A stretch of 64,000 nt of DNA from Psammoneis japonica (GCA_008632985.1 QPGO01000060.1:248001-312000); one strand, 5' to 3'. Shown: positions 633 to 53,790, numbered from the stretch's first letter. The notes: generated from the letters alone by a model not told the origin. Numbers and translations are program-made.

Positions 633-660
633 GCGCCCCTCACAAAAACAACACGACGGC

Positions 661-7330: not shown

Positions 7331-9994
7331 TTCACCAAGTGACGCCATGGTGTCTCCCGACCTTGCAAAGGCCGCTCCCATGACTGTCACTGAGATCTGT
7401 CATGAACTCCAAGCACACAGCACTCTGCCACACGTCCATGCGTCCATGAATGTGCTGTGTGCGGATTTCACATTCAATCTGGATACGTTCTTTGAAGATC
7501 CAGATCACACTTGGCCCAAGAAGAATTTTGTGGACTTATTCTCAATAAATTTCTCATCAATCAAGCGATTCCACCTTGCACAGTGGATCCCATGGACATG
7601 CAGTCCATCAAGACAATTGTGGGTGAAGCTCTTTTTGCATTGCAGACCCTGCTGAGTCTCACACAATTCATTTGATGCTTGGAGGTCTCTCAACCATGAT
7701 CAAGCTGAATCTTCAGCAACACAAGCATGCTCCACACATTCTCACATCAACGCAGCATGTGTGTCTTGATCCTGATGTGCAAGGGAATTGTGGAGATTGG
7801 AAAAAGTTTTCTCTTTCCCCACATGCATCCAAACAAGCTCGTGCAGCTCCACAGTTGTTGACCACGAATCCTTTGTTGACATGCATGGACAATTTTGCAA
7901 CGACTTTGCGTGACATTGAGTCACATCATGCACAACCACATTTGACAACTGCCAAGTGTCATGGAGGTGCTGCTGTGTGTGTTGCACCCCAGTGTTGACC
8001 TCCACAAGAACATCTGCTTCATCCAGCAATGAGCATGAATTCCTTGTTGATTGGCACAGATGATTTTGTCAAGGCCCGGCACAGTCCTTCATCAGCAACT
8101 GCACCACTCCATGAGAATGCAGCCATGCATCCTGGAGGCAATGTCATCCATCTTCAAGCTCTTGTGCCTCTTCCAATGACAAATGCACTTCTTCCCTCTG
8201 CCAATGTTCATGATCTTGTTGCTGCATCGTGTGATTCCTCATCGGGGCCTGCATTGTCCATTGCAGCTGCCAACTTGTCTCATGAAGAATCTGCGGCACC
8301 TGTCATGTCTGTGGATCAGGACATGACTCCAGACACCGAGGCCACTGGGGAGAATGAAATTGGTTCTTGTGCTTGGGTTCAAGAACCCAGGGTTGCCGTT
8401 GCTCCAAGTTGCACCCCATCCTGTTCTTGGTTGTTCATCTGATGCCAACAAGCATGTCCTGTGGCAGGATCCTGAAAACTCTCAGATCAAGATGGACATG
8501 AACGCATGCTTTGACAGGGCATGGACAACCCCCCTTGTGCAAAAGATCAATGTGATCCAGACCCTTCACCTTCCAGTGACCATGACAAATGAGAGAGAGC
8601 ATCTTTGCTCTCTTGCTCACCCTGGGCCTTGTCTTTGACTGATCATGCATTTGAAGATTCAAAGATGGATGCTGCCACTGAGTCCTCCAGCCAAGATGAT
8701 GCAGATGTGACTCAAGATGAAAATGCAATTTTAATGGGTGCGCGGGTTGGTCCTGTGATTGCTGCTGTGCCAGATGTCAAGCCTCCTGTGTCTGTTGTCT
8801 GTCATGGTTTCTGCAAGCAAGCCATCTGCAATTGTTGGCACCAGTTCACTTGCATTGTCTGCCAGATTGGTGGCACCATTCCCGCCAACCTCCATGTTTG
8901 CATGCTCATGACCCCAAAGATTTTTGGCCATTCTGTTGTTCCACACAATGGTGGCCACATTCAGCCACTTGATGGACTGTCCTCTGTCATCAAGGTCACA
9001 CGTGAGCCACTTGCCACCTGTGTGCTGCCACCATCTGATGCTCAAGGATGCCACCAACACTGCATTGTTTGTCAAGTTGATTTGCACTTGGATTTTTGGT
9101 TCAACCATGTCATCAGCTTTGGACATGTGATGCTGCCATGCCTTCTCTGATCTGACCAACAAGACCAATGGAAGCGGGGCAACCCTGAGAGAGAGCCACT
9201 GAGTCTTGTTGTCTCCCGCCATGTGTCACCTCTTTCCTTTGCTGTCAGGACTGATGTGGTGTCAAATGACATTTTTCCTGGCACTCCCGACCTCTTGTTG
9301 ACCATCCCGATGACAACCCCACACTTTTTGAACAGGGAGGGATTCCCACAGCACAGATGAAGCATGTGAGGCTGTTGAGGACACCACATTCAATCAAGAA
9401 ACCTTGCGTGATGACCATGATTTGAACGTCGTGCAATGCTCACCTGCAATGCGTCACTGCTCTTCCAGCATTGAATGACTGCATGATGCATTTTGTTTGT
9501 CCAACATGTTTTTCAGGGGTGACACATCCTGTGGCAGAAGCACTGTTTTGTCAGGTGGATTGCTGTTGCTTCTTTTCTGCTGCACTGTCTGCCATGGTGG
9601 ATTTGCATTTTCTGGCCCCATCCCTTCCGATGAGATTTGGTGACAGCATGACTCTCACCAGAATGTCTTTCTGCGATTGATTGCTTGTTGATTGACAAAT
9701 TTATTTCTTTGGTGCAAGACTTGATTTGTCCTCAAGATTTGTTGGAAACAGACTTTGATTTTTTTGTCAAAGACTCTGATGGATCAGCACATGCGCCCTG
9801 TTGCCGTTGGAGACACTTTTTGTTGGAGATGTCATCACCCTGTGCTGTGTTGTTCCTTTGCAATTGCAAGTTGAGCCTGGATGCTTTGTTTTGTAATCCA
9901 GTCTGTTCTCATGTGTCATCCCTGTTCTTTGAATTGATCTGCACTCATGCCATCTGTGTGGATGACCACTGCTGCAGACAGCATGACAGCACAC

Positions 9995-10270
9995 ATGCTA
10001 ATTCTATGAGATGGCATGTAAAATGGCATGTTTTCACGCAAAAAAAAAAAGCATGCCGGCAATTGATTTGTGGCCGCCCACTGCAACAACTCATTTCTTG
10101 TGAATTCAGAAGCTTTGGAATGCTGCTGCAAATCAATTTTCCTTTGTGCATTTCATGTGCCCCTTTGCCCGGCAATGTTTGACGAAGTTCTGTCAATGGC
10201 AAAACAGCTGGGGATCATTGGAAAAACAGTGATGGCATTTGCGACTGGGGTGCCACATTGACAGCACATT
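9995..10270 (+). repeat. ~270-bp repeat, left arm; inverted copy at ~16605-16865
   Basis: gcatgccggcaattgatttgtggcc...actcatttcttgtgaattcagaa...tgcaaatcaattttcc aligns with the reverse complement of the 16.6-16.86 kb segment. Confidence 0.75.
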
Positions 10271-10369
10271 CAGTCCAAACATGTCATCTGTGTGGATGGC
10301 CACTGGCAGCAGCAGAGGAGCCATTGCAGTGGCGGAGCGGCGTGGCCACCGCACCACACCAGTGACAAG

Positions 10370-13300
10370 TGAGCGAAGTGGGGGCACATGCAATGCAACC
10401 AAGTGCGCTCCCTCTGACACGTGCACGTCAGAGCAACCAACGCATTTGGGTGTTCAAAAGGGCTGCCAGAAGCTCTCCAATCAGTGGTTGATGTTGATCG
10501 GGCATCTTCTTGGTTCTCTTAATTGTCACCTTTGTCAAGTCATCTCAAGCTGCATCTTGCACTGCAGCTGCAGTCATTGTTGCAGCTTGTTTGTTGTGCC
10601 ATTGTTTGCACGGCAATGTCAAGACTGCTGTCAAAAAGAGAGAAAGCTCATCTGCATGCTGGTGCAGAAAATTTTGATAAAAATCATTCTGAACTGCTGT
10701 GTGTTGATGCTTGTGAATTTGGCAACATGGAGCAGTGTCTGTTTGATGTTGAGACATGCATTGCTGCTCTGGGGTTTGTGCTTGTTTGGTTGTTGACAGT
10801 CCTGGTTGTGTGGATCAATTGGGGCCACATTGTTTCACTTGCATGGCCGATTGTTGATTGGATGATTGCTGAGATTGTTCATCACCATGTGTCAAGAAGC
10901 CTTGGAGAAGGCTTTTGCATTGAGCACAAGACCAAATTTGTTGATGCTGAGTTGCACAAAGTGAAGCTTGCTCAAACTTTTGATGATGGAGCTGAGCTTT
11001 CAAAAATGTGTCCTGTTTTCACAGGAGAGCATGGCACTGAGTCGCTGTTGCACGTGGAGGATTGGCTTTGCAAGGCAGCGTGTCAGTTGGCTTGTGACAC
11101 TGGACCAGAACTTTTTGATGCCTTTGAGGATTGCCTGCAAGGAACTGCAGAGTCAAAGTGGCAGAATGTTGCTGGCAGAATTCCTCAAAACCAACAGACA
11201 GTGGATCGGTTTGATCAAACAGTTCAGGCCTGCCATTTGTGCTGCATGAAATTGATGGCATGGGGCACCATGAAGGCCTGTTTGCCTGCTTGCAAGAAGC
11301 CTCATTCAGCAGAAACGGAAACTCACATTGACTGCATGGAAACTTTTTTTGTCATGCCAGCTGCTTGCCTGGAACAATTCCTGAACTTGCAGAGCAGGAG
11401 CAGAAGAGTGCAACATTCTGCACTTTTCTGCTGACATGGCAGCAGCCCTGTGTCCGTGCAGGCAAGAACCTTGTTGCTGATTCTGTGGTGGATGTTCAGA
11501 CTCATGTGAGTGATGAGAAGGCATTGGCTGATGGACAAGATGGCAAGAAGTGCAAATCTGCTGACAATGATGGCAGAAACTTTTTCCAGCACCAAGAAAA
11601 GTGGCCATGACAAGCACAACAGAAAGGGCCAACCCAAGGCTGGCGATCCATGCCCGGTTCCATGGCATCATGGAAGGCATGCGTGGGGCCAATGTTGTGA
11701 TGACCCCAATGACCCCAGCTGTCATGGACCTCAGAATTGTGGTGGTCGCGGTGGAGGCCGTGGTGGAGGCAGTCAAGGTGGAGGTTGCTTCCAAGGAGGC
11801 CGCGGTGGTGGCCGAGGTGGCGGTGGATGCTTTGGTGGTCATGGAAATCAAAACCAAGGAAGCTGTGGCACCTGTCACAACAACTGCAACAACAACAACC
11901 ACAACGGGAACAATGCCAACAATGGCAACCAAGGTGGTGGCCAACATTGTTGCAATGACAACAACAACTGTGATGGTCAAGGACAGACCAACGGCTGTGC
12001 TGCTCAGGCAGATGTGAACAACAACCAGGCTTGAGAAGCTCCTTGTGGTGGCGTGCACCATTTCAATGCAATCGGACAAGGCCTTCCACGTTCTGGAGGA
12101 GTGGCAAGGTTTCAGTCTGATGGACAGATTCCTGGGCAGTTCTGAGAAGAACAAGCTAAATGCTCCAGAGCTGAGTGCTCCCAACTGCCCACACATGAAG
12201 TGTTTGTGAATGAAAATGAATCTGTTTGACTTGAATTGAATGACAAATGTTTTGCTTTTGATTGTTTTGAAAATGCCAACAAATTGTCACCTGCTGAATT
12301 TGAAGACACTGCAGAAAATTGCGTGAATGACGAGGGAGACGTGTTCGATCAAGACGCGTTTGAACACAACACTCCTCTCCCCAAAATGGGTTTGCAAGTT
12401 TTGCAAACAGCATTGGCACCATCCACTGCACTTGTCACCAGAATGATTCAGCATCACGAGTCAAGTCAAGCAATGTGTGTTTTGTTTAATTCTGGAGGTC
12501 TGTTGATGAACAAGGAGTTTGGGCTTTTCAGATGGCAGCAGGTTCATTCCAGTCAGGTCAATGGGTGGCATTGAGTGACATTGTGCCACCAGAATTCGAC
12601 AAGACAAGATGAGTTGATGGCTGTGCGGCACATGCATTTGATGCTCCTTGTGCTTGTGATGTTGTTTTGGGTCAAGATTTCCTGGACAAGATTGGACTCC
12701 ATTTGAGTTGCGACACCAGAACGCCACATTGATCAGACCATGTGATTCCCATGAAAGAACCTCGTCATTGGTGCAAGTCTTGCAATTGGCATGTTGCTTT
12801 GGATCAGATGGATGAATTTGATGATGATTGCAAAGACAAGTCAGATTGTGGATGCAATGACGGATGTGACAGTTGCGTTTTGGATGCCAAATGTGAAGCG
12901 ACGGATCCTTTGGAGGTTGTGAAGACTTTGGATGATCTGGATGAAGAGCAGAAGAAGCAGCCACTGGCAATGTTGGAGAAGCACTCCATCCCATTTGATG
13001 GGATGCTTGGCCATTGTCCTCATGAAAAGGCACACTTGGAAATGGATGAAAATGCCATGCCCTGTCACTCAAAACCTTTTGCTGTTCCTCAAGTTGATGA
13101 AGATGCTTTTAAGAGAGAGCTGCAGCATTTAGTTGAGCCAGGAGAGTTGCGACCGTGTGGACCTGCGGAATGGGCAGCGGGTGCTTTTGTCATTCCAAAG
13201 AAGGATGGCCGTGTGTGATGGGTGTCCCATTTTTGTGAACCAAACAAGGCACTCAAACGGAAAGTCTGTCCTCTGCCAGTGATCCAAGATGCGCCACAAC

Positions 13301-16020
13301 AAAGAGCCGGACACAAATTCTTCACAAAGATTGATCTCACTGTGTTCTGTTGCAACTTGGAATTGAACAAAGAAAGCAAGGAGCTGGCTATGATTGCAAC
13401 TCCCTGCGGCAAGTTCCAGCATTGTTGGATGGCCATGGGATTGAAGCCAGCTCCAGATGTCGCACAGTCTGTCATTGAAAAGATTTTGCATGGTTTGGAT
13501 GTTGAAACTTGAGTTGATGATGTTGGAGCTTTTGATGCTAACTTTGAATCCCATCTTGCTTGTCTTGACAAGGCATTGAGTCATCTTGAAGAGAATGGTT
13601 TAAAAGTGAATCCTTTAAAATGCAAGTGGTTTGTGCAGGAGACAGATTTCCCAGGACATTGGCTCATGCCGAATGGAGTCAAGCCATGGAAGAAGAAGGT
13701 CAAAGGAGCCATCCTTTGCATGCAGCGTCCACAAACTGCCACACAATTGTGTTTGCTCTTGGGCGTGACAACTCTCTGTCATGGCATGTGGCCTTGTCAT
13801 TCTCACTTGCTTGTGCCTTTGATGGAATTAACAGGCAAGAGCCAATTTCAATGGTTGGTGGCATGTCAAAAAAAGGGTTCAGGGAAATGAAGGCTGCAAC
13901 AGCTTCTGAGGCGCTTTTGGCTCATCTGAATCACAACAAACTGTTCCATGTTTACACAGATGCATCTGATTGCCAGATGGGCATGGCAATTGTCCAAGAT
14001 GGCAAGCCAGTGGCGCATTGGTCCAAGAAACTGTCGGCGGCACAACGCAACTGCTCAATGATGGAAAAGGAACTCTTGGCTGTTGTTGTGCCTTTCAAAG
14101 AATTTTGCACCACGCTGCTTGGCACTGACATCACTGTTCATGCTGATCATAAAAATCTCACCTTTCGCACTTTGAACACACAGCGTGTCCTGTGGTGGCG
14201 CCTGTTTCTTGAAGATTTCGTGCCTGCCTTTAAGCATGTCAAAGGCAAGGACAGCATGCTTGCTGATTGTTTTTCTTGACTCCCGTGTGTGGATCCGCCT
14301 TTGGAGGGGAAGAGCCTTGGTCCGAGTGGCAAACACCCAGAAAAAATTGTTCATGTTGAAAGGTTGGACAGCAGTGAATTGAGCAAGGCCAAAGAGGAGG
14401 AAGATTTGGAGTCAGGCACTTGCAGATTCAAGTGTTGTCATGCTCCTGTTGAACCCTCTGCTGACTCTCATGCCTTTTCTTCTGCCCTTGATGAGCCAGA
14501 AATGTTGAATGCTTCTTAAACTGTCCAATGTCAGATGAGATGCCAAACCCCACCAAGCCATTGCGGGTGCAGCAGCTCCAGTTTGAGGACCATCAGTTGA
14601 GTCAGCAGCTGCAGCAGAATCCTCAACATTTTGTGGTCAAGATTGTGAACCAGCGTCCTCTCATTTGTTGCAGTTTTCACATGAATGATCTGCCTGGAGC
14701 CTGGAAGATTTGCATTCCCATGGTGTTGTTGCCTGATGTTCTGACTTGGCACCATCGCGGGTTGGGCCATTGCAGAGTCATGCATTTGCACGAAAGCATT
14801 TGCACTCTCTTGTGTGATCCTGCATTGTGTCGACGTTGTGATGAATTCATTTGTGATGCATGTCAACACTTCAAACAATTGGGCCCTGGATGTGGAGAAT
14901 TTCCTCAGGGTGAAGCGCCATTGGCTCCTTGGATGGAAGTTGCAGTCAAACTCATTGGGCCTTGGAAGATTCCAATTCAAGATCAAGAGATTGAGTTCAG
15001 CACTCTCACTTGTGTTGACACTGTTGCTGGATTAACTGAGCTTGTGCACATTGACAACAAAACTGCTCAGCGTGTTTCCAACAAATTTTGCAACCTTTGG
15101 TCAGCTCATCATCCCAGACCAAATCGATGTGTTCATGACAATGGTGGCAAGTTCATTGGCTGGGAATTTCAAATGCCATTGAATCAAGTGGGTGTTGTGG
15201 ATGTTCAGACAACGTCTCACAATCTGTGAACAAATGCACCAGACAGCAGCTGACATTTTGCATGCTGTGGTTGTTGCTGACCCTCTTTTGAATGTTCAGC
15301 AGGCTGAAGGGACAGTGGACAATGCCCTTGCCACTGCATCCTTTGCATTGTGATGCTCCCACTCAAGGTCTGTGGGTGTTTCAAGTGGAGCATCAGTTTT
15401 CCAATGTAACATGATGTTGGATCTGCCCGTCATTGCTGACCTTGCTGCAATTCAAGCCAACCATCAAGCACCAATCAACGAGAATCTATGAAGACAGAAT
15501 GTGAAGCATCACTCCTGCAATCATCCAGCTGGGCAAGATGTGCTGATCAAGTCTGTCAATCCAGCAAAGCTCAAGGAACAAGCTCATGGTCTGTTTTGAA
15601 TTGTGCAAATCCATGCCAATGGGACTGTTTTGGCACTGCAAGCACCACATGCAATTGAGCGGAGAGCGGATTGACGGTCATCATGTGGTGCTGCATTGGA
15701 GTTGAGGGTTTCTTCCCAACATCTGGGTTCCCTTCTTTGCAACATCTAAGTTTGAATTTGAGTTGAGTTGTTCCAAACAGTGCATGTGATTCTTGCACCA
15801 TTGGGGGGAAGAGTGAACAAAATGGGGACATGTGCTGCATGACCGAGTGTGCTCCCTCTGATGTGTGTGCATCAACTGACACATTGGACATTCAAAACGA
15901 CCATTGGAAGTTCTCCATCAGCGATTGATGTTGATCAGGTCTCTTCTTGGTTCTCACAATTGTCATCTTTGTCAAGTCATCTCAAGCTGCATCTTGCACT
16001 GCAGTTGCAGTCATTGTGAC
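10370..16020 (+). mobile_element. Degenerate Ty3/Gypsy LTR retrotransposon 1 (gag ~10890-12030, PR ~12400, RT ~12950-13850, RNase H ~13890-14280, IN ~14530-15700)
   Basis: Direct LTRs starting at ~10370 and 15814 (shared tttgtcaagtcatctcaagctgcatcttgcactgcag); PPT ggggggaagag at 15803-15813; motifs FVIPKKDGRV, VET*VDDVG, YTDASDCQMG, EKELLAVV, ADHKNL, LIGPW, VHDNGGKF; RT-RH-IN order; many stops and frameshifts. Confidence 0.92.
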
Positions 16021-16604
16021 CTTTGTCAAGTCATCTCAAGCTAGATCTTGCAACAAGGATGACTGAAGTCATTTGATGACTCGCGCCATTTTTGGGGCTG
16101 CAGTGAGGTGGACGGACACTCTTCTTTTTCCAATTTGTTGCCAAAACAGTGCATCACACAAACCCACTCATTGCTTGACATGTTTTTTCTGACATGACTT
16201 TTTTGGTGTGCAATCCACAACAAATTCTCTTTGTTTGAAGCTGTGTGCAGTCTTCAACATGCCACACCGGCAATCCCAATTTTGCAGCGCTTTTGAGCTC
16301 TTCTGAAAAACAGCTCCAAGCACCCATTGCAGAGAATTTGTTGATTTTTTGGGATGTCCCCACAACCTCTGATGTCCTTGATGACTGTTCTCCAAATCTG
16401 AACAATCCATTTGTGCTGAACAACACATGCCGTTGCAAAATCGGAGGGACGCACTCGCAAATTCAAATGGACCCCCCAACTGCCCGACTGCCCGACTGCC
16501 CAACTGCCCAACAGACACAAAAAGTCTGCAATCACTGGCCACTGGGTGGTCAATGAAAGTCTGCAATCACCAGCCACTGCCCTGAGTGGTCAATGAAAAG
16601 ACAA

Positions 16605-16865
16605 CTCTCCAGATGCGATTGCCTGGCATGGCATCTCGATCCAAAATGCCACCACAATTTTTCCAATGCTCCCCAGCTGTTTTGCTGTTGACATCAAAGC
16701 ATTGGACACAACAGGGCATGGTGGCTTGTGAACAGCACAAGGGAAATTGATTTGCAGTGGCATTTGAAGGATTCTGAATGCATGAGAAATGAGTTCGTCA
16801 CAGTCGGGGGCCACGAGTCAATTGTTGGCATGCTTTTGCATGCCATTTTGTGTGCTGTCTTGTAG
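16605..16865 (-). repeat. Inverted copy of the 9995-10270 repeat
   Basis: Matching translations ELISHAFRILQMPLQINFP...AKQLGSIGK (-) and QLISCEFRSFGMLLQINFP...AKQLGIIGK (+). Confidence 0.75.
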
Positions 16866-19779
16866 AATCAGTGCCAGGATTGCCGTGGCCAGAAACAGCA
16901 TGTGTGGCATCATGGCATCTGTGCAGACAAACAACCAGCTACCAGCTGCCGTGAGATCATCATGAAAGATCTGTGCCCCAGATTTTAGTTCAAAACAGGT
17001 GCAGATTGTCAAGGATTCCAGAGGAGCAGATGCAGATTCTCAAAAAGTGTGGATTTTCAATGACTCTGTTCAAACTGGATTTGGGTTTTCTCAGATTTGA
17101 AGAACCCCTTGCCAGGTGGGCCTGGTGCATTCTACGTGCATCCTGCGTGCATTTGCACTGGGGTGCAGATTCCAGATTCCCATTCAGAGCAGGTGCCGAT
17201 TTTTTCAAGCCCCTCAAAAACAACAGGTGCAGATTCTAATTTTGGCACAGATTTTCCATGACAATCATGGTGGTCCATGTGCTGCCAAATTGCAAAATTT
17301 GTGACATCACAAAATTTGCAACAAGTTCCAAATCCCTGCACAATCGCCACATGGCAAGTTGAGAAACCACACCCTTGTCACCCTCAAAGATTGTCTTTGC
17401 TGCAAGGGCAACATCCTCTGGTGCTGTTCAAGGTGCAGGTGCACTTTCTGCTTTGATTGAGAAAAGACATGATGCACAAGAAAGGACAAGAAATCATCAT
17501 TTTCAAAGGAAACTGCCTTCTCGTGACTGCAACTCATGCCGACGCATCACAAAATTTCAACACAACCTTTTTGGACAATTGCACTGCCTTTTCTCACAAA
17601 CAAACTGTCTCACGAGGCTCTTTGCAATGACAACAATCCAATTGGTGCAATTGTTTCACATCACTTGCAGACCTGTGGTTGTCAAAACAGCAGCAGCATT
17701 CTTTGCCCATTTGAAGAAAAAAAGAAGTGCTCTGAGACCCTGCATGTGCTTTCATCATGAAAAGTTTGAGCCATTTGTCTTTGTAAATTAATTTGCAACT
17801 TGAGAATTTTGTGTCTCAGCAGTGTGCAACAAGTTGAAAGTGTGCAACTCAAAACAGCAAAAAGAACAAAGATTGTTGGATGGCAGACAAACAATGAATG
17901 CTCAAAAAGACATTTCAGTTGAATCAATCACTCATGTGGTCCCTGCAATGTGCTCCATGTAGACCACTGCACCTGCATGCTGCTGGCAGCAGAGTGGAGA
18001 GTGCAGTGATTTTAGTGCATCAGGGCCCTCTCTCTGCCAGCATGCAGAGCAGAGAGCAAGCTGTTTCAAGAACACATGGAAGCTGGCACATCAGACCACA
18101 ATGCATGCTGCCACACAGCACGCCAGCTTTGGTGCATTCTTGGTGCTTTGCAGACAGTGAAGTTGCTGTGCAGGGCATTGCACACCAACCAGTTGATGCC
18201 ATCCTGCCTGGTTGTTGCTGTGCAACTCTCTTCATCAGCAGTTGTCACAGGAACAGATCATCATGGAGCTGCCTGCCCTCCCCTTGTCAGTGCCTTCAAT
18301 GACCAACAACACTGAAACACAGCAAAGCCAAGCTCCCAGTTGACCCCACACACTGCCTCTGCACTGGATGAACAATGCCATGCTGGCAACATCTCAGCAT
18401 TGCAGCCACCCCCCCATTTTGTTCCAAGGCAGAGCTGGTCATTTGAGTGGTGAAATGTTGCCAGCATTTCATGTTTGCTTGCTTTGCATTGCTCCACACA
18501 CTTGTCAAAAAATGACGGTGCTGTTTCAGTGCCAGTGCACAGCTGAGGACTCAAGATCCCCACACATGTCACTCAACAAGCTGGCCAATCAAAGTCAGCC
18601 CCCCCCCCCCCCAGTTTCTCTTGCAAAAAAAGGAGCCAGAGCACTGCCACATTTTTTTTTAGTCTTTGCACCAGCACAAAGAATGCAGGAGCTCAATTGT
18701 CAAGAACAGTCAGGTGCAGCAGAAGCACAACAGAAAAATGTGGCCCAAAGAGTCATTTTCTCATCAACAAACTTCCTCCTGAAGGCTCTTCTCTTGCATC
18801 TCTGCACCCCCCTCCAAGCAACAAGAGGGGTGACTCGCACTTCACAACAAACAGATCTGGGAAAAGAAGCAACAAAAAGTTTGGAAGAAGTCCATGAGAT
18901 TTGCTCAATTGAGCTGCACAGTGATGGAAAAAAGGATGGATGCAAGGCAAGCATGGCCGCCCCACCTCTGCATGTGTGCGTTTCTCAGCTGCTGGGGGGC
19001 CAAAGCACATCGGGGGCACCCTCCAAGAAAAAAGCTGCACAGTTGCACTTGTGGCTCTTACAAGCATGCAAAATGCTTGGCTCAGTGACTGCAGGCATTT
19101 GCTGGCATTTCTTTCAAAGTTGGCCTTCTTGACAGAAGCTGGGCTTCTTGAGCTGACAGAGCCACTGCTCTCAGGCCATGACGGGCCAGCAAGCGTGGTG
19201 TTTGAAGCATCAAAAAATTGTGTGCAGCTCCTCCTGCAGTGGTCTAACAGCCTGGATGAAGTGTGGGAAACACGAGCCATTTCAAAAATTTCAAATGTTA
19301 GACCTCAGCTGGAGCGGTCTTAACAGCCTGGATGAAGTGTGTGGAAACACGAGCCGGAAGATCCATCCTACAGGTCATCCGTGATTCGACTCATGACTGG
19401 TGGAATTCGCGATCCGCTCATCCAACTCGTCCACCAATCACCAATCCATCCAACCGCCGAATCTTTGGGGGAAGTCTCCCGCCAGCTGCTGGCTGAAGAA
19501 TCTTGTGTAGAATTTGTACTGAAAGAGTCTGTCAATCTGTGCGTTAAGGGGTTTTGTGAACGCTGGACAGACTCGTCGTCTTTCGCGTACGTAAAAACTC
19601 TACTGGCAAACCCCCAAACGCACTGACGAGCAGACTTTTTTTAGCCAGCAGCTGGCTACGGCTGGAGACTTCCCCCATCTTACAGTAGGAACTTACCGTA
19701 TCGCTTGTCGCACTCAATACTTCTCTCTTCTGTGCACCTGGCTGAGTCTTTGTGTAATTTATCACAAGAACAGATCATT

Positions 19780-41360: not shown

Positions 41361-41631
41361 TGGAATTGTCCTGAGGCTGTGTGGTGTGGGAATCTACGCA
41401 ACGTGGCAAAAAATGCAATCAGCTCTGAATTCTTTGCAGCAAGTGTGATTGGCCGTCACGTCTTTGTCCCCGCACATTTTCTACAGCGGCTGCACGATTT
41501 CGAAAATTCATGCCGCAACGCTCGAAGCATCGCCTTCAGTGACGCTCTTGACGAACCTGAAAGCAAAATCAAGAGCGCAACGGTGTGCCTTGAACATTTT
41601 GACAACCTTGTCGAGTGCAACGGGTCCAAAT

Positions 41632-43665: not shown

Positions 43666-46600
43666 CTAAGGTGCACAACTTTCTAACCTCTGTAAAAGCA
43701 GCGCGAGTTTCGGAAGATACATCGTGACTGAACAAAAAGAAAGTAAGCGGTGCGCGATTTGGTGAGGGAAAAATTGCGACAGGCAAAACAAGAGTTGATG
43801 AAGCGAAAATCAACTCACCGTACGACTCTGTATAGAAACCGTGCTCCTTGTTGTGGCCACTAGCGAGGTGGTGACTGTGGAAAAGAGAAAAGGAGAAACA
43901 GTAAGAAAATTTCAGGAAATGAATTTGACATTGTTATGCACGTCCCAAACACGAAGCGCGGGCGACGACTCACGCTAGTTCATGGGCCATCACAGTAAAC
44001 CAGTAACTGTAGCATTCAGCAGAACCATGCTTCTTCAGACTGTAGTGCAATGCGTAGAAAAATCGTACGTTAAAATGAAGAGACCGATTTGAATTGAAAG
44101 CAATGGTACCCCCAACAGGCTCGTGATAAATTGCAACAGTGCCAAGATCCAATGAATAAATGCTGCAAAGTTGCTTTATCACATCGGCGAAGCTATCAAC
44201 AGCATGAAAATTCTCGCCAAGAAAGTGGTCGGAGTTCGTATGTTTCCGGGACGCGAATACTCGGATGCCATTGTGAGCCTTTCCTGTCCGATAAGGTCCT
44301 GTGAACGGCTTTAGGTCTTGACTTGGAATAACTTCGCAGCCATTTGGGTTGCGGTTAAGATTCTCCGGTATGGGCATGTTGACGGCTGCGGGGGAGTGCA
44401 CACCTCTCGCATTCACCTTCGAAGATTCGGAGACAGTTCTACGCAGCATTTCTTCCATACCTCGTTGGTTCGCCTCATCAGCTGCCGGAGTAACAACATT
44501 TTCATGATCGTTGTTGGGCACAAACGAAGGCTTATTATCTTCTGTGTATTTCGCTTTTGGCGCTTCATTCTCTGATTTGCTAGGCGCTCGTTTCCCACCG
44601 AACGCACGAGAAAGACGTTTGCCGAATTTGCGCTTGTGCTCGTTCAGCGCTCCCGGATGTCCGTCTCTTGTCTGACCACCGCTTTTCTTGGCTTTGTTCG
44701 GCGGCTGTTTTTCTGGGTGCGCATTTTGAGCGGCAGCCTTGCAATTCTTCGGATAGTCACCAGACGACATTTCTTCGGCGAGAGTCCTTACATCTTCTAA
44801 AGTCGGTTTGTCGCCCAAGCGCGATCGAATAAACTGTTCAGATGCGTCTGGATACATTTGTGATAGAATGTCAACAAACCCGTCCTTGCTGATCACATCC
44901 GAGCCATCTCCGTTGGCAGTGTTCGACGTCTTTGCGGGTGGCGTCCCCGCTGGAGGCATTGCCGCTACTGTTGGCTCTGGTTCCTTCACAGGCTCAGCAA
45001 CCGGCTCAGTAGGTCGCAAAATGCGATCAACAGGAAATCCACGAGCTCGAAGCTGATCGAGAGGCGCCTCCAGGATCGATCCAATGAAGAAAGCATCTTC
45101 CAGCTGGCAGCGCTGAAGAATAAGCCCGCCAATGGCATAGCCAACATCGAACCAGTCGAATTCTTCGGTAATGTAAAGTCCGTTCTTTCTCCCACCAGAT
45201 GATTTGGCACAACAAGTGATTCTCTGGTTACGAACCGATTTGCCTAGGGAATATACCGCTTTCAGACTGTCTGCTTCAACGATTTGCAGCTTCTTGTCCT
45301 CTAGTATGGAACTGGCGGCTGGAACAAGAGGCCTTGATGTAACACTAGGGGATACCAAGAGCGGGCGCCTTTCCGAAATTCGCTCAGCAAGTTGACGAGT
45401 AAGCTCCGTGTTCTCACGCTGCATTCCAAGCACCTCGAAGTTCTTTGATACACCTTTGGAAATGTATTTCGATCCCAACTTGACGTAAAAGTCCTCAAGA
45501 TCTGATTCATGTGGAGCTCTCAAAACAGGGAACATTCGTCCAAAGAATGAATTGTCAATGATGAATACATCTTCTGCCTTTGCCAGCAAATAATTTGCTT
45601 TCTCTTTTGGTTGGTCACCGTCAGAAGACATTTCTTCTTGGACCTTATAAGCCAGCAAAAACGGGGACTGACGAATAGCAGGCGTCACTCTTTGAAAGGG
45701 AGGATTTGCAGCAATTCGTCTCAAAAGAGAACGATACTTTTCTTCGCTCCCGAGAGTCCGTAACACCTCGTCTGGTGAAGCAATGATCAACCGAAAGAGA
45801 TCTAGAGGGCGGGACGACGAGGCACAAACATTAGAGATGAAATATTGCGGGATATAAATGACCGCCGCAATCACAAAGACTTACCTTCGGTGGTTGCTTC
45901 AGACTTAACCCCAGCTGCTGCCAGAAACGGGCTAAATTCAATCACATGAAAGAGAAGTCCCGTCAAGGAATCGTTCTCGCTCTCTGAATTCTTAAAGTAC
46001 ACATCAGAAGGTCTATACCACGAAATGCCGGATTTGCCCACCTTTCTGGGGATAAAGGCTTGCGACTTGAGTTTATTGAGTGAGGATTCACTGAAATCTG
46101 TACTGCGTGTGGAAAGATACTTGAAGATGTCATGGAATGTGGCACACACGTGCGTGCACAACGCCGTGCGATCGTCTCCGTTGGTCTCCTTGATCTTCTT
46201 CTTGGCATCTACTACCAACTGAAGAAGCTGTTTCAAAAGTGAAATCGGCTGTGGTTCATCTGAAATTGCAAATCGAATAGCGTACAAGCCACCGCTTTTC
46301 TTCTCCGCTTCCGGATCTAGAACCGGAAAACCCATTATCAGGCAAGCTGAGCTCGAATAGCATGTGTTTGGCGACTGCAGTTCCTGGATTTCACTCTTTG
46401 GTACAAGAGGGTCTCTCCTGATTGCAGGCAAAAACCAAAGATTTCTCATTTGTTTTGCCGTTGATTTCGGGTTGAATCTGGACGGATCACAGTCATTCGC
46501 ATACGCTCCATTGGGTTCAAGGTGTTTACAAATGTAGTCGAGACACCGAAGACGCAATTCCTTGTCCTTGACGTCGTAAGCCACATACATGAGCAAATCG

Positions 46601-49377
46601 TGTAGAGATGGATTTACCTTGCAACCAAGCTTTTGTAGAAACTTGCCATTTGGCGTTTTCGTGGTGAGAGCTTCGTCGGAGGGCCACTGAAGCAGCTTTA
46701 CAAAAGGAAATACACGCAGGGCCGGGTCTGGTAGATAGAGCTCCGACGGGGCAAAGGTTCGAGAGATATCGTTCTCTGCAGGAAGGTACTGGGTCGTTTT
46801 TAGCTTCTCCAAATCCGAGCTCGTCAAGCTTGCCGACTTTAGATACTCCACCAGCGGTTTCGGATCGTCGCTCCAATTCAGCGTATCTAAATTTGTAAAA
46901 AGAAAGTCAATCGAAACGCTCTTTCTGACACCCAGCGCCAAGAGAAACTCATCGGAAACACCACTATCCTTGAGTCTATGCGAAACTTTGTTGAAGGAAC
47001 CAATTCCATCAAATGCCTTCAACTCTGCCGAAGACAAGTAAAGGTTTCCCGGACACTCTGCCGCATAATTTGTGGCCTGTTGCGAGTCAAACGGAATGCA
47101 CCGTTTCTCGCCAAGGAGACTCTGAAGATAGCTTACAAACATGGTACGCTCCGTCAATGCCCGACGACTATATTCCTTGGCAAGAGTGGCAAGCACTTGA
47201 ATGCGAAGCTTTTCGTCTTCTGGCTGTGCCGCCGTCATGCAAGCAGAATGACTGATAAATTCTGCCCAAATCTCCATGGACAAGGGGGAGAACCACCCTT
47301 TTAATGACACGTCTCCAAGGGTACCAAGGCTCACGTGTTCTTGAATCGTCTTGGGAAGGACCGCCTCTGGCATGGGAAGGTCATCAGGGAGCGATTTTGG
47401 TTCCACATAAAACAGATAATCCTTCAAATGCTTCACGTCCACCACATCACTGCTCTTTGGTTTCTCGGATGGAAAGTAGCGCACATTGTCCTTTAACGAC
47501 GGACCAACATTGACGACATGGGGCTCGATTCGACAAAATTTTGTCCACCACTTGATCAACCTGACGACTTGTTTCTCTTCCAGAACTTGCGTCGGCAAGA
47601 GTGTTGACAAATCATGCAACACCAATCGTCGACATTGAGCAATCACTTCATGATATTCCTTGGCATTTTCATACAAAACTTTTCGAACCACATTCTGGTT
47701 GCAAAAGGCCTCCATGCCTTGGTAGGGCAGCCGTGCATCACTCCCTCGTGCGATACCCGTTCGTGTCAAGACGGGTGGAGACGTGTTGGGCATGCACGCG
47801 GAAAAGCCCGACGCCAACGACATGCCCACCAGCGTGTCGGGTGTCGACTGTTGTGGACAAAAGGAACGCATCAAGACAATGGCATGTTTTTCTTCCGGCG
47901 ACAGTGGCCGTGCATCACGGGGATTTAACAACTCGGCACTGCCATCGTCCACAAGAGCGTCAACTGAATTTAGCACGCCAACAATTTTCTTCTTGACACC
48001 CTTGGCCATGAATTTGGCAAAGGTTGCAATAGAAGATGATGACGAGGAAGTATTGTCTTGTTCGTCTTTTGATTTTGATGATTTGTCCGGTGCTGACGAC
48101 TCTTTCTTCGGTGCTTCCTTTTCTTTCTCGAGTTGCGCTTCTAGCAACTCTCGTTGAGCCGCACCTTGTTCCCATTCCTCTCCCACAACACTCATGGCTT
48201 GTTCCAAGGTCAATCGCATCAAGATTCCCGCTAATTCCAACAATTCGGTATTGTACTGGCGCAAGGCGGCATCCTGAAAATCAATCGCTTCACGCTCCAC
48301 CGTGGGTATGAGAGGTGCCGCCAAGTGTGCGGCCAATCCCGTCGTTTGGGAGGTTCGAAACCCAATAAAGACACGACCCGATCCCATTTGAGGAGAAAAG
48401 GACCGTGTAATGCGAGATGCGGCTGACTTATTTTTGTGGCTGGAAGAGGAGTCATTGGTCGCTGCCGCATTAATGAAAATTTGAATATTCACGCTGGGTG
48501 GCGGCTTCTTTTTCGTGACTCGTACCATGCGTTTCGAAACGTCCAATGGAATTTTCGTCTTGGCAGTTCCAGAAACATAACGCGCTTTTACAGACGACGT
48601 TTCTCCATCGAGCGTTACGGTAAGCTCATGGATGGATTCGAGTATAGATCCATCGCTCCGTCCCAACGAAAAGAATCCCCTGGGAGACGCCGTCACGGCA
48701 CCATCGTTTTTCCAAAAGGAACTCGCCTTGGGTGGCTTCACAGTGGTGGGTGCTTGAATCTCTTTTTTCGTAATGAGTAAGCGTTCCTTGTCATTCACCT
48801 TGACTCGAATCGTTCTCAGACATTGAGTAAAGGTCAGAGACGCGCATAAAAAGCTCCCAAACTCCACCATATCCGGCAAGGCATACGGATCACGTGAAGG
48901 CAAAACAAAGGTTGTCCATTTATCGTTTGCTTGTTTGTTCGGTGCCGTCTTGGTCCATAGCGCATCGCCCTTCCACACAAACGCCAGTGCTTCTGATCCA
49001 GAAATAACTAGAGGTTCCTCGCAAATGGAAAACATGGTATACGCACCCACTCCAAACGCACCGACTTTACTAACATCGGGATTGCCTTCCGCGATTTTCT
49101 TGAGACGAGACCAATCCTGAGGACGAAAGGGCATTCCATTGTTCCTGTAAACCACTTGAGTCACGCTATTAGTTTCTGCATGAGTCGAAATCAACACTTG
49201 AGCTTCGGTCGCTTCCGCGTCGTTGGAATTTTGCAACAATTCTCGATACACGGCACCGGCCGATGCATAACGTGCCAAAATTTTATCAATGAGAGCACGT
49301 TGATTGACTTCGACACGAGAAAAGTCACCGTCACCGGCAGCGTCTACCGCGGCACGAACGTCATTGTAAAGCGTCAT
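43666..49377 (-). CDS. Large GHKL/HSP90-like ATPase protein with C-terminal HExxH motif (DUF3684/sacsin-like); 4 exons (49377-45885, 45801-43974, 43874-43819, 43727-43666)
   Basis: VNQRALIDKILARY, RELLQNSNDA, NNGMPF, VGAFGVG (Bergerat fold); spliced C-terminus MAHELAHHLASGHNKEHGFY; all three introns are GT-AG and keep the frame. Confidence 0.85.
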
Positions 49378-49549
49378 TTGCACGATTGTGAGATGGAAGC
49401 ACAACGAAACTCGCTGCGCTGCAAAGCAGGTTTAGTCTCGTGCGCTGTTATTTGTCTGGCCTGCGTGCGTTCGTTCGTGGCACGTGGCACGCTCTATCAC
49501 TTGCTCCTCTCCTCCGGAGACCTCGAGACTGTAGACCCCTCACCCTCAT

Positions 49550-52500
49550 CAATGAGACCATGATGAGTCGTCATTGTTTCCGCGCACCCTTTCGATCGAG
49601 GTTTCTTTGGCAAGGTGCTGTAAAACTTGGGTCAAAGCAGCGTTTGTGTTGCAGATGTCATCCGATGGGACAGAGTGAGAAGAAAAAAAGAGCGAAGGAG
49701 TGGGGAACACTGTGTCGAATCTTTGTCCTTCTTCAGACAAAGAAAGAGAACAGCAACAGCATCAAAAGCAAGCAAAGAAGCATCCATTTGAAATGGACTC
49801 CAGGCCCTGGGTTCAATGGTGGTGGCTCTGCGGCCCATTTTCTCAGAAAGACATCACCAAACACAGCCAAAAAGTGGCTGAGAGAGAATGATTTCAGTGG
49901 AGTCAAGGTGTCTCAGGTTTGCCCTTTGTGGGAAGGATTCAACTCAGCAGAAAGCACAGAGCTTTCAGTTTGGCACAGTGAAGAACTTGGGGAGAGCTGC
50001 TTTTTGTCACCAAGAAATGTCACATTGAACTGCAGCTTGGGCATGACATTGCTTTTGGAAGCCAAGTTGCTGGCCTGTCAGGGGATCTTTTGTAAGATGG
50101 CACACAAACTTTTCATGCGGTCTTGCAGTGGAGTGGAGCATGAGCTCATACAAGTGGCCAAAGGAATGTTGCACAATGATGGACCACCTCTCCTTGCAAT
50201 GATGGGCCACCTCTCCTTTTGTTCTGCATTGTTGTTTTGCAGCTCGTGGGAATCAACAAAAGTTGCATGTGGGGATGGAGTTGCTGTGGGGTGCTTTTGA
50301 GGAACACATTGTGCTCATGACCTGCAAGAAATGCTTTGTCAAATTCAAGCTGATCCTCAAATTTGATGAGACCATTGCAAACTCATTGGAGAAACTGTCG
50401 TTTGAGAGTTTTGAACAAGCTTTGCAGAGATCTGCCATGAAATTGGTGCACACTGGAGAGTGCAATGCCACAGCTCTCCTGCCAATGTCACTTTGGCCTG
50501 CACCTCTGTTGACACCCCCAAAATGACAGCAATGCTCTGCAAAGCCAACAAGACTTTCTCAAGCTGCAAAACATTTGCTTGCTTGCACACATTTCCTTCA
50601 CACATGCTGCATCACAGAGAGCAAGTTGTGGACCTTCTGAAGCTCCTTGCTGATTGACTCTTTGCTCAGGGTGTCAATCAGATGGTCTGGCATAGAATGC
50701 CCTGCAACCCTCCTTTGCAAGTCTGTCACTGGACATTTTGTGCTTCCATTCACATGGGTCCTGACTGCCAGCATTTTCCATGACCAACTGTCCATCTTCA
50801 ACAGCCACCTCACACCAAGGTCTCAAAAAGAGAGGTCAAACTCTCAGCTGACTTGCTGTCTGCATGCCCAACAAAGATGAAATTGTTTGTGGTGATTTGC
50901 CACCTGAATGTTGCGTGCCAGGATCCCAGGACCATTGGGAAATGCACTGTGTCTGTCTGCCAGTGGAGATGGAAGGATGCACCCCTCGTTGGATTTCTGA
51001 GCCCTTTTTGTCCCATGCAGAAGTTTGGAATGGACAACTTTGGTGCAGATCTCAATTTTTTCAAGCCTTGTGCATCAACGTGGAGCAGCTTGACCATGAT
51101 GCCCTCCAAATGATGACAGCTCTGGCTCAAAAAGGACTGTCAATTGTCCTCAAAAAGGACCCCAAGCAACCTGAACACAATCCACAGGAAGGGTGCAATG
51201 TCCCTTTAGAAACACTGCCTTTGCCACACAGCAACCAACTCCCTTGTTTTTGGGCTCACCAAGACAACATGGTCACATGGGTGTTTTCAGCACACCCAGA
51301 AGCAGCAAGCAACCTGAAGCATCCCATTGCATGCATGGGCAGTCATTCAGTGATGGCCCTAAATTCCTTGCAGTTGAAACAGAGTCTGAAAATGGATTTG
51401 CACCAGTCCAACATTGTCTTTGAGCCATGTCAGCCTCCACTTTTGAAAATTGAAGGCAGCTCCATTTCTTTCAATGACATTGATTGCCCCCCCCCCCCCC
51501 CCTGCCATGGCTGAACCACAGACAGGTTTTGTGAACCTTTCATCATTCTTGGCAAAACAGTGTTGCAGCTGCTTTGCCTGTGCTCCATTTCAATCCACTT
51601 CCCTGCTTTGAACCATTTTCTGTTGGGTTCCAAGTTCCAAGGGGCACCACAGAGCCAGAGGAAGTGAGGGAAAGAGGGCAAGGCATTTTGCTGTGGATGT
51701 TGGGTGAATTGCTGAACCTGTCTTCAAAACAGCAAGCTCATTGGTTTCAAGAGAAATGATCAAACTCAATCCACTCCTGATGGAGAGCATTTTAAGTTTT
51801 AAGTGTGAGAGAAAACTGCCATCTTGATTGAAATGCACAAAAACATGTTTGCTGCATTGTGCTCCCCCCAGGCTTGACAACAACATTTTAGATGAGAAGC
51901 ATTTGCTCCCCAGATTGAAGAGAATCCAAAGGCTGCATTAAATTGGGTGCAATCTTGATGAGTCAAACAAAGCATCTCTGGATGATGTTGCAACCAAAAA
52001 CACAGCAAGAATGACACCTTGAGAGCTTGCAGTTGAGGAAAAGAATGACTGTTGCACACTGTTGCTGTGCAAAGCTAGACCCATCAAATCTTCCCAAGCC
52101 CATCAAGAAGGCTTGGCACACTGGGTCTTGACATCATGCAGCAAAGAGTGTCTGAGCGCCAAAGCCACAAACCTGAAATTGATCACCCGCAAGTCTCACA
52201 GGGTTGCTTTGCTTGTTTTTGCAAGTGCTTTTAGAGAGCTCTCCAGAGATTCTTCCTTGATGGAAAGATGTCACAGAGGAAGAAGCAAAGCAGGCCAGCA
52301 CTTCCTCTTTGCCTCCTGCAAGCATTGGCAACCAGTGTTTGAGCAGCACTTGATTGTGAGGGGATTGAGAGTGCAGTCTTGTTCATCATTCCAATTGCCA
52401 CACAATTGTTGTTGTAAAATGACTTGGCCTCAGCAAACACCACTGTTGGGGTGATCACACCTGCGGTTCACATGAGAATTGAAGGGCTTGCCATCAACCC

Positions 52501-53790
52501 AGAAGAAGTTGCCACTGTCTCTGTTTTTCAGCCCACCAATTCAAAACAAATTTTTGCCAGCTAGGACAGAACTGGTGCCTTTGCATTGGGCTGTCTGCTG
52601 TTTCTTGTGGTTGAGAATAGAAGCCAAGCTGCATTGTCTGTTTGTCCTTTCTCTCCAAAAATCTTGGCAAAAGTGGCAGGAACAGGATTGACAATCAAGC
52701 TGCAGTGCTTCTTGTGATGATTTCACTTCTTAGAACTGCAACTCAAACCACAAAGAGAATTGCAGGCATTGTTAACATCAACAGCAGCCTTGTCATTGTG
52801 AGCACAGATGGCAGCAAAGGCAACTGCCAAAGAGCAAGCAACTTCATTGTCGGTGCAACGGACAAAAATCATGTGGTTTGCATTGCTGCCACTTTGCAGT
52901 CTCACATGATTCAAGGCAGTGAACCACACTGGCACAGAGTGAAAAAGTCCACATTGTCAACTGAGCCAGACAACTCAAGGCTCCATGGTTTTTGATTGTC
53001 CCTTGCAGATGCATGCCTGTGAACTGAAAGTGGGGAGCTGGTCAATCAACAGTCAAAAGATTTGGTGGGAGACTCATCTGCAAGTTGCTTTCAAAAGACT
53101 TGCTTGTGGTGCACTCTCTAGCAATGCCACTCATGAAGGAAGCACTGCAAGACAGTGTCCACCTTTGTGAGCAAGCAGCTGCCAGCTGAGCAAAAAGCAG
53201 CTTGAGTTGCAGCCATTTGGCAGATGGGGCCACTGCACCAGCTTGGCCTTGATTTTTCTCCTGGGCAGCTCCACATTGACAATTGAAAGTTCAGCCAACA
53301 TGCCAATGGCAAAAAAAAAAGTCTCACCTTGCATGCTTGAAACCCAGTGCGGTTGGGGGACAACAGAAAGGCACAGAGCTGGTGTTTGATGGGAGATCTT
53401 TCAAAGCTCGCTGAAGCCATTTGTTGTTTCTTGTTTGCATCAAGTTTGACCAGTTGGGAAAACTTTGTCCTCATTTTAATGTGTTGAGTGACACCAGTGT
53501 GTTCTGTGTTCGCTGGCACGACATCTGCTTGATGGGAGGAGTCAGCTGGCAGTGCTGGTCTCACCCCACACCCACACAACTTCATTGCATTTTTTCTTTT
53601 TGGCTTTGCAGCACTCGAGAAGCACTCACAAAGCAGGGACAGGGAGACTGGGAGAAAGTCCTTGGAGAGGTCATCCTCATCCATGATGGCGAGATGTCAC
53701 TTCTCCCCACCACATTGTCAACCATCGCATTGTGTTAACAAGCTTTGCGGGTGATTGTTGCATGATTAAAAAACGCGCCAAATAAAGCTC
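49550..53790. other. TpA/CpG-depleted degenerate island 3 (unidentified relics, including a paralog of the 59.5-60.4 kb sequence)
   Basis: Same dinucleotide signature as island 1; MASASFERSPIKHQL (~53420, -) matches MAASACFERSPVKHKL (~60380, -). Confidence 0.8.

Follow-up and report, generated by a model that had tools for sequence, protein, structure and literature searches.

What could empty some stretches of a genome of a single dinucleotide while neighbouring genes keep it? The question is raised by a 64,000-nucleotide stretch of the Psammoneis japonica assembly (GCA_008632985.1, QPGO01000060.1:248001–312000; hereafter the window, with positions counted from its first letter). An initial annotation of the window, made from the sequence alone, had noticed blocks of repeat DNA almost devoid of the step TpA (TA) and had proposed that a second, TA-specific process turning A:T into G:C acts there beside the decay of CpG (CG). 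Here, we report a computational analysis of these blocks. We find that TA has been converted to TG or CA, in place and on both strands, within four islands of non-genic DNA of a diatom-like stramenopile, made up of degenerate long terminal repeat (LTR) retrotransposons, repeats of no assignable class and duplicated fragments of genes. Comparisons between copies within the window give the direction, relative rate and sequence preference of the change, and point to a region-targeted mutator, probably an adenine deaminase acting at silent chromatin.

TA is nearly absent from four bounded islands

Observed/expected (o/e) dinucleotide ratios were computed over the 64-kb window, in 1-kb bins and in pooled compartments, and island limits were set from the positions of individual TA steps. 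Four sharply bounded islands, 31.2 kb in total, were delimited in this way, and their coordinates agree with those of the blocks first noticed. Island 1 (7135–19508) has its TA-free and CG-poor core at 7546–19059; TA thins from 7135 and is normal again from about 19508, and at these edges TA loss extends 300–430 bp past the CG-poor core. Island 2 (25066–25938) contains a TA-free run at 25089–25881, with normal TA up to 25054 and again from 25975. Island 3 (27410–42183) holds a young LTR element (27828–31216), an old core (31.5–41.3 kb), a second Gypsy element and a calpain gene fragment, and includes a right-hand zone (41.3–42.2 kb) that is without TA yet has normal CG. Island 4 (49621–53736), with a TA o/e of 0.04–0.19 and a CG o/e of 0.02–0.33, has a content that resisted classification. 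The edges are sharp to within tens of bases (25054/25089, 25881/25975, 42183 and 53736), the longest uninterrupted TA-free run measures 1,479 bp, and TA loss runs 100–900 bp beyond the CG-poor cores.

The depletion is matched by an excess of the expected transition products. In the bins at 8–19, 32–41 and 50–53 kb, TA o/e is 0.00–0.11 and CG o/e 0.02–0.38, with TG and CA at 1.5–2.07, whereas wholly genic bins have a TA o/e of 0.40–0.79 and a CG o/e of about 1.0. Pooled, the islands (31,189 bp) contain 126 TA, 591 CG, 3,447 TG and 3,332 CA, compared with 1,170, 1,812, 2,227 and 2,297 in the 31,304 bp outside. TA o/e is thus 0.06 in the islands and 0.56 outside, CG o/e is 0.33 (0.25 in island cores) and 1.00, and TG and CA both reach 1.74 in the islands. 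The island cores hold 83 TA counted region by region, or 84 in the joined string used for a shuffle test, against an expectation of 1,809 ± 31 and a minimum of 1,731 over 200 mononucleotide shuffles. Gypsy element 1 (10368–16017), for which some 20 TA had been counted by eye, contains 19 where base composition predicts 393. The sum of TA, CG, TG and CA is nevertheless the same in both compartments (7,496 per 31,189 bp in the islands and 7,506 per 31,304 bp outside, 24.0% each), as predicted if TA and CG turned into TG and CA by transitions, and GC content is 0.481 in islands and outside alike. Finally, in the zones at 27.4–31.5 kb and 41.3–42.2 kb, TA o/e is 0.15 and CG o/e is 0.70; TA has been erased there while CG is largely intact, indicating that the TA process is independent of prior CG loss.

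TA is converted to TG or CA

Two duplicated gene fragments give the change a direction. Island 2 is a mutated pseudogene fragment that derives from a DUF3684/sacsin-type gene, as a copy of its 3′ end and of the DNA downstream, and blastn aligns it to 43262–44119. The three closest diatom DUF3684 homologues are 62–68% identical to the coding part of 43262–44119 and 44–52% identical to the island 2 copy, which six diatom homologues still match by tblastn with E values of 1e-11 to 1e-15. Because the homologues are closer to 43262–44119, island 2 is the decayed duplicate and the gene copy represents the ancestral state. Among 41 TA of this source, 21 read CA and 10 read TG in island 2, and only 2 are kept, 39 being lost. 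The 43 source CG fared less badly, with 11 now CA, 10 TG and 16 kept. The loss is specific to TA: A:T>G:C changes at other steps stand at about 6–7% per step (10 of 148 AA/TT and 6 of 93 GA/TC). It also runs in one direction, as none of the 118 TG or CA of the source became TA, bearing out the proposal that the pattern is opposite to that of fungal repeat-induced point mutation (RIP). The second pair, in which the calpain 5′ region at 24555–24799 corresponds to the island fragment at 40992–41239, behaves in the same manner, with 6 of 7 TA and 7 of 10 CG converted to TG or CA in the island copy. The 31 conversions among 41 polarised TA in island 2 thus uphold the suggestion of a TA-specific A:T>G:C process beside CG decay.

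CG is the product of TA at only 1 of 46 polarised sites, so that one hit removes the site as a target. The two source copies, 43262–44119 and 24555–24799, have normal TA and CG, including 34 TA in the 694 non-coding bases of the former. These comparisons show that TA gives way to TG or CA through an A:T>G:C transition on either strand, and that the change is TA-specific.

Mutation acted in place after insertion

If each copy of a repeat resolves its ancestral TA independently, TG in one copy should face CA in the other, giving TG/CA double mismatches between copies. The alignable stretch of the two Gypsy elements (39128–40856, 68% identical to 13944–15653) has 60 of these, 30 in each orientation, and the next most frequent class of double mismatch numbers 8. 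The LTR pair of Gypsy element 1, at 79% identity, has nine. By contrast, a control direct repeat outside the islands (55989–56695 and 58598–59303, 73% identical) has none, and both of its copies have normal TA and CG. The LTRs of the young element at 27828–31216 are 92.4% identical, and 19 of their 21 differences lie at former TA or CG steps, comprising 4 TA-polymorphic sites, 5 CG-polymorphic sites and 5 pairs of discordant TG/CA; 15 CG are common to both LTRs. Inside the same element, 42-bp tandem units (29886–30540) keep GTAC in some units and have GCAC or GTGC in others, and the encoded repeat reads VSYLET, VSHLET or VSCLET accordingly.

The same alternation is visible in protein. At columns where Gypsy outgroups from metagenomes (L001 and L002) have Tyr, one window copy has His and the other Cys, which confirms that Tyr>His/Cys replacement destroys the transposable element (TE) proteins; translated pol open reading frames (ORFs) of the islands retain 0–1 Tyr each. 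The individual RNase H motifs cited earlier as examples are present, with HTDASDCQ at 39137, YTDASDCQ at 13953 and HADHKNL at 14139 and 39326, but the Tyr assumed to precede TDASD finds support from copy 1 alone, the outgroups having Glu at that position.

Discordant TG and CA between LTRs, between Gypsy copies and between tandem units exclude editing of a transcript before integration. Mutation is therefore shown to have acted in place, on both strands and after insertion or duplication, with one hit per site. The ratio of TG to CA is 715:554 on the sense strand of Gypsy element 1 and 459:445 around Gypsy element 2, and a skew in the first but not the second amounts to no consistent strand bias.

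TA changes faster than CG

The young LTR pair allows rates to be compared. It had an estimated 16 or so ancestral TA, of which 2 persist in both LTRs, 4 in a single LTR and about 10 in neither, the last figure being twice the 5 discordant sites. TA conversion per lineage is thereby estimated at 75%, or 1.4 events per site. CG changed at 5 of 40 lineage-sites (0.13 events per site), and the background is 1–2 differences in about 136 positions outside pyrimidine–purine steps. TA would thus change roughly 200–350 times as fast as the background and some 10 times as fast as CG, with a possible range of 70 to more than 1,000, as judged from this one LTR pair. The older pair, formed by island 2 and its source, retains 2 of 41 TA and 16 of 43 CG. 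CpG>TpG/CpA decay accordingly runs in the islands more slowly than TA loss and over a slightly smaller area; presumably it reflects deamination of 5-methylcytosine (5mC).

Surviving TA reveals a flank preference

The few TA that persist in the islands differ in context from those outside (tetranucleotide context, chi-square 135, p = 1e-24). Sites with a purine (R) after the A on both strands, that is TTAA, CTAA/TTAG and CTAG, make up 73 of 126 surviving island TA and 220 of 1,201 outside. Relative to outside, the share of TTAA among survivors is raised 4.2-fold and that of CTAA/TTAG 3.8-fold, whereas ATAC/GTAT falls to 0.10 and ATAT has no survivor; both TA common to the two young LTRs are TTAG. 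The polarised pairs provide a second view, in which the strand that was hit is scored by the base after its A: C was hit in 16 of 20 cases, G in 10 of 21, T in 4 of 9 and A in 5 of 20, with C and A at +1 differing significantly (Fisher p = 0.0012). Words of the form xTGC show the largest excess in the islands, and GC o/e is 1.20 there against 1.04 outside. Together, these patterns indicate that 5′-TAY (Y, pyrimidine) is favoured over 5′-TAR, with the preference for C at +1 firm, A disfavoured and T uncertain. Read on the other strand, the same data are a preference for 5′-RTA for a hit on T.

The process is targeted to regions

TA has been retained in introns and in the intergenic DNA next to the islands, so the process is region-targeted. 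Six introns bridged by spliced contigs from a public run, X2, contain 31 TA in 483 bp (64 TA per kb), and TA o/e is 0.49–0.88 in seven stretches of non-coding or intergenic DNA outside the islands. Age does not account for the loss in island 3, where the young LTR element has already lost most of its TA although its LTRs carry just the 1–2 background differences. Island 2 ends within about 25–60 bp of the ends of the duplicated segment. Run X2 is labelled ‘DNA?’ but has spliced joints and looks like RNA; it yields no contigs on most island bins, an observation that is uninformative on silencing.

The assembled bases are supported by a second public run, X1, a DNA run whose platform is not on record and whose k-mer contigs cover the islands at a single-copy word depth of about 54–66. 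Over island 1 the X1 contigs show 0–2 differences per 700–900 bp, and those at 17771–18612 and 18599–19510 match the window with 0 differences. A contig of 1,870 bp differs from the window at 11 positions, 10 of which fall inside island 2 (873 bp) or no more than 6 bp from it, and the 11 include 5 CG<->TG/CA and 3 TA<->TG/CA changes; a contig over genes has 7 differences in 5,084 bp. Divergence between two haplotypes or strains is thus greatest within an island and falls at the same kinds of site that separate island copies from their sources, which points to recent or continuing activity and is hard to square with base-calling error.

A candidate mechanism and its alternatives

Taken together, the observations are, in our judgement, probably explained by a region-targeted mutator that converts TpA to TpG or CpA in place on the islands, most likely an adenine deaminase at silent chromatin. 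An enzyme recruited to silent chromatin would act on the non-genic islands; the likeliest candidate, a TadA/ADAT2-like adenine deaminase that works on polynucleotides, would turn A into inosine, read as G, with a preference for 5′-TAY-3′. A converted site is no longer a target, and TpA and CpG both drain into TG and CA. The outcome is permanent inactivation of TE genes through Tyr>His/Cys replacement, along with loss of TA-containing signals. The native target loop of TadA is U-A-C-G, and early TadA editors preferred YAC. The island bias for T at −1 and C at +1 would resemble this U-A-C loop and is compatible with a deaminase; a preference for T at +1, if real, is to our knowledge not a TadA trait. 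The process would be of the same kind as the TpA-only hypermutation of Bigelowiella natans mutation-accumulation lines.

Several points weigh against this explanation. The role of T at +1 is inconsistent, as survival ranks TAT as the most sensitive context and the choice of outcome gives 4 hits of 9. Island 3 ends on the right within an ORF (41635–43275), with scattered Tyr>His/Cys replacements upstream of the edge, so that the edges of islands 2 and 3 do not settle what defines an island, and targeting by silent chromatin is an assumption. The apparent rates were derived within one window, with a background of 1–2 events only, and X1 may be the assembly’s own sample. Elsewhere, four related metagenome loci, found in one scan with the RNase H alignment, have ordinary TA (o/e 0.43–0.65), and all 37 of 37 database relatives of the RNase H ORF contain 1.3–5.7% Tyr, compared with 0.4% in the window copy; as mutated copies are rarely gene-called and the database holds no close relative, this is not evidence of absence.

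The alternative that fares best, though we consider it unlikely, is oxidation rather than deamination: a thymine dioxygenase of the TET/JBP type would make 5-hydroxymethyluracil (5hmU) or 5-formyluracil at TpA in silent DNA, and mispairing with G would yield T>C. In dinoflagellates 5hmU is enriched at TpA, and 5-formyluracil gives A:T>G:C. The signature is strand-symmetric, so that sequence alone cannot separate A>G from T>C, and the flank bias serves a hit on T at 5′-RTA-3′ equally well. What tells against oxidation is the match of the TAC bias to the U-A-C loop recognised by TadA, together with the preference of the authors of the B. natans preprint for deamination, which they offer as a proposal.

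It is likewise improbable that duplication itself is the trigger, with sequence marked by a homologous partner, as in RIP, and its TA then mutated irrespective of chromatin state. The TA-free run of island 2 (25089–25881) does sit inside a duplicate (25066–25938, 870 bp), which now exists as one copy when matches of at least 90% identity are counted, and all identifiable island content is repeated or duplicated. However, the partner copies are untouched, down to the 34 TA in 694 non-coding bases; the repeat pair outside the islands is spared, although it is just 73% identical; and an ORF spans the right edge of island 3. The term ‘RIP-like’, used in the initial annotation, therefore fails where it implies homology-triggered mutation of both copies, since the source copies of two duplicated gene fragments escaped.

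Patch repair of the Pol eta type, set off by T:G mismatches from 5mC deamination and mutating A at WA (W, A or T), had also been put forward for this DNA and now appears very improbable. A>G at TA does belong to the established WA hotspot and CG decay is present in the same islands, but AA is spared (10 of 148 AA/TT changed against 39 of 41 TA lost), TA o/e falls to 0.15 where CG o/e is 0.70, the young LTR pair shares 15 CG while about 75% of its TA is converted, and TA loss runs 100–900 bp past the CG-poor cores. 

The remaining alternatives we regard as barely credible. Editing of retroelement RNA at UA by ADAR or ADAT, followed by reverse transcription, would deliver copies already mutated; UA is the preferred context of these enzymes, both by established knowledge and according to the B. 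natans preprint, two islands hold Gypsy elements, and element 1 has 715 TG against 554 CA, but the LTRs of one element show independent TG and CA outcomes, the Gypsy copies split 30 to 30, pseudogene fragments that are not retroelements are mutated, and both strands are affected (21 CA and 10 TG in island 2; 459 TG and 445 CA around element 2). A genome-wide neutral bias, with the islands merely old junk, would fit a TA o/e below 1 everywhere, including 0.56 outside the islands, but scarcely the 64 TA per kb of introns, the intergenic TA o/e of 0.49–0.88 beside the islands, a young LTR element already depleted of TA or edges defined to within tens of bases. An artefact of assembly or base calling, produced by base modification in heterochromatin, might be entertained because the platform is not on record and X1 is possibly the assembly’s own sample, but X1 contigs reproduce TA-free sequence at single-copy depth and differ from the window at mutator-type sites, and CG is the product at 1 of 46 sites where miscalls on two strands would give mixtures.

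Genes and elements of the window

The genes between and beside the islands are those of a diatom-like and not of a fungal genome. They include a gene for the catalytic subunit of DNA polymerase alpha (2167–7027), which proved uninformative on taxonomy, an MIT-calpain gene on the minus strand (23515–24738) and the DUF3684/sacsin-type protein gene, also on the minus strand (43970–49404). The named homologues nearest to the DUF3684 protein are 42–55% identical and nearly all from diatoms (Cylindrotheca, Seminavis, Nitzschia, Pseudo-nitzschia, Mayamaea, Fistulifera and Thalassiosira), with the best database match at 62%, and a few red algae also have homologues, at 48–51% identity. For the Gypsy RNase H, Cylindrotheca closterium provides the best named relative. 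Spliced X2 contigs reveal five short introns (75–88 nt, GT..AG, minus strand) in MIT-calpain at 22384–23517, and a 73-nt gap (21041–21113) in the ORF at 19705–21045.

Gypsy element 1 is degenerate and lies on the plus strand, with LTR-like ends at 10368–10580 and 15812–16017 (5,650 bp); Pfam places its reverse transcriptase at 13219–13887, its RNase H at 13872–14276 and a weak integrase match at 14495–15226. The summed depth of X1 contigs over island 1 (7001–19673) is 80–3,400, compared with about 57 over genes, and 610 of the 1,095 contigs over this interval are only 90–95% alike. High depth and limited likeness together indicate that the genome holds many diverged copies of the island 1 repeat families. 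Gypsy element 2, also on the plus strand, is recognised by Pfam through its RNase H at 39041–39505.

The young LTR element (27828–31216, plus strand) has 278-bp LTRs at 27828–28105 and 30939–31216 with TG..CA ends, and has lost most of its TA and retained most of its CG. Its internal ORF (28884–30872, plus strand) encodes 663 amino acids with no Pfam match, and the tandem repeats within it (29886–30540, 42 bp) form about 12–15 units of 14 residues with a consensus like PPDWMPQVSYLET.

Across 244 stop-to-stop ORFs of at least 70 amino acids overlapping the island intervals, a Pfam search at E ≤ 0.001 found Gypsy reverse transcriptase and RNase H as the sole matches above cut-off. A PRP4 match in one island ORF scored 21.4 bits, below the 25-bit cut-off, and was taken as chance. 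Rerunning the 44 longest island ORFs at E ≤ 0.5 added the weak integrase match alone (E = 0.05). TGA is the only stop codon left in the islands. The erasure of TAA and TAG produces long spurious ORFs in all six frames, so gene finders would over-call there.

The ORF at the right edge of island 3 (41635–43275, minus strand, 547 amino acids) has no Pfam match and belongs to a multi-copy diatom family, for which we found 152 database relatives, including members from Fragilaria, Nitzschia and Thalassiosira; the genomes of Fragilaria crotonensis and Nitzschia inconspicua each have many. The ORF probably encodes a protein of an undescribed diatom mobile element. Taking as strongly conserved those columns with Tyr in 25–26 of 26 homologues, all 3 of 3 in the C-terminal third, within the TA-free zone, read His, His and Cys, and the upstream part retains 7 Tyr at conserved Tyr columns and has 4 His or Cys.

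The calpain 5′ region followed by the DUF3684 3′ end occurs twice in the window (24555–25938 and 40992–44119), and in each occurrence the redundant half alone is mutated: the calpain 5′ region is the unmutated source at 24555–24799 and the mutated copy in island 3 at 40992–41239, and the DUF3684 3′ end with its downstream DNA is unmutated at 43262–44119. From its arrangement, this gene-junction pair looks like an old duplication that was later separated by about 16 kb of transposon insertions. The control repeat (700 bp; 55989–56695 and 58598–59303) flanks an ORF at 57452–58558 and could represent either a gene region duplicated in tandem or an LTR pair of great age that the mutator spared.

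Significance and comparison with known systems

TA-free islands distort TE annotation, as Pfam fails over most of them, and likewise gene prediction and the dating of TEs by LTR divergence. The TAY preference, the single hit per site, the sharp edges and the spared source copies provide fingerprints by which the enzyme might be sought. If it proves to be a natural DNA adenine deaminase, it would be of interest to the base-editing field, and some diatoms can be edited by CRISPR. More tentatively, stramenopiles and rhizarians might share a chromatin-guided DNA adenine editor that acts at 5′-TAY in silent transposons, viral inserts and duplicates, an idea we hold possible but would not yet lean on. 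If it were true, the editor would be an A:T>G:C mirror of fungal RIP, and TA-free islands would be a fossil record of DNA treated as foreign.

Like Pol eta in the somatic hypermutation of immunoglobulin genes, the process mutates A:T with a T on the 5′ side in a targeted region. However, the WA hotspot includes AA, which is spared here, and Pol eta makes mixed substitutions, whereas here there are almost only transitions. ADAR/ADAT hyperediting, which makes sense-strand A>G changes before integration, differs in that LTRs and copies here have discordant outcomes and the targets include DNA that is not retroelement. With TadA, ADAT2 and the base editors derived from them, the process shares A>G change by way of inosine, if deamination is at work, and T or U at −1. 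Natural enzymes of this type are known as tRNA editors; the B. natans preprint (Mettrop et al., bioRxiv 10.64898/2026.01.13.699255) cites reports of action on DNA only for the ADAT2 of amphioxus and of trypanosomes.

CpG decay of methylated TEs, a class that includes the TCG hypermutation described for basidiomycetes (Horns et al. 2012, PMC3318451), accounts for the change of CG to TG/CA. CpG decay cannot, however, remove TpA, and TA loss here is faster and wider than CG loss. According to a survey of diatoms, their TEs are CG-methylated by DNMT5, and the RID-related DNMT4 occurs in 31 of the 60 species covered (PMC9998398); DNMT4 may be relevant to the loss of CG seen here.

Like RIP in Neurospora and other ascomycetes, the process makes dinucleotide-specific transitions in repeats, kills TE genes, leaves bounded blocks and acts after integration. 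In contrast to RIP, which makes TpA from CpA, it destroys TpA (TA o/e 0.06, CA o/e 1.74); RIP mutates both copies of a duplication and lowers GC content, whereas here source copies are spared and GC content is unchanged.

The closest counterpart is the TpA hypermutation of integrated nucleocytoplasmic large DNA virus (NCLDV) and virophage DNA in B. natans (10.64898/2026.01.13.699255). The process had been thought undescribed when the window was first annotated, a view overtaken by this 2026 preprint; in the full-text literature outside subscription journals, the preprint is the sole account of TpA-directed hypermutation that we found, with nothing for diatoms. Of 231 mutations that arose de novo in two viral inserts, it reports 230 as A>G/T>C, those all at TpA, at about 1,000 times the background rate and with episodic activity. 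It further describes TpA-poor clusters rich in CpA and TpG, with TE-type Pfam domains enriched among TpA-poor coding sequences, and proposes an ADAT2-like deaminase and directed mutation as a defence, likened to RIP and to APOBEC/ADAR. Its main text makes no mention of CpG, of trinucleotide context or flanking bases, or of diatoms.

The two systems share exclusive TpA>TpG/CpA change on both strands, confined to foreign or non-host blocks with normal flanks. They differ in host and target. B. natans is a chlorarachniophyte, on the rhizarian branch, in which viral inserts are hit; the host here is a diatom-like stramenopile, the targets are LTR retrotransposons and duplicated fragments of host genes, and the Pfam matches of the islands are to Gypsy reverse transcriptase, RNase H and integrase and not to a viral genome. 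The rate of about 200–350 times background here, estimated from paralogous LTRs, compares with about 1,000 times from de novo mutations in B. natans, and depletion is near saturation here (TA o/e 0.05), compared with a rho of 0.45 in the NCLDV insert. TA loss here coincides with CpG decay, on which the main text of the preprint is silent. The same signature in a diatom-like genome would mean that the process is not one alga’s curiosity and may be widespread among marine protists, and it would tie TpA mutation to transposon control, apart from the decay of methylated CpG. Relative to B. natans, the window thus adds a distant second lineage, targets among transposons and gene duplicates, and near-saturation, together with separation from CpG decay, a flank preference and source copies that are spared.

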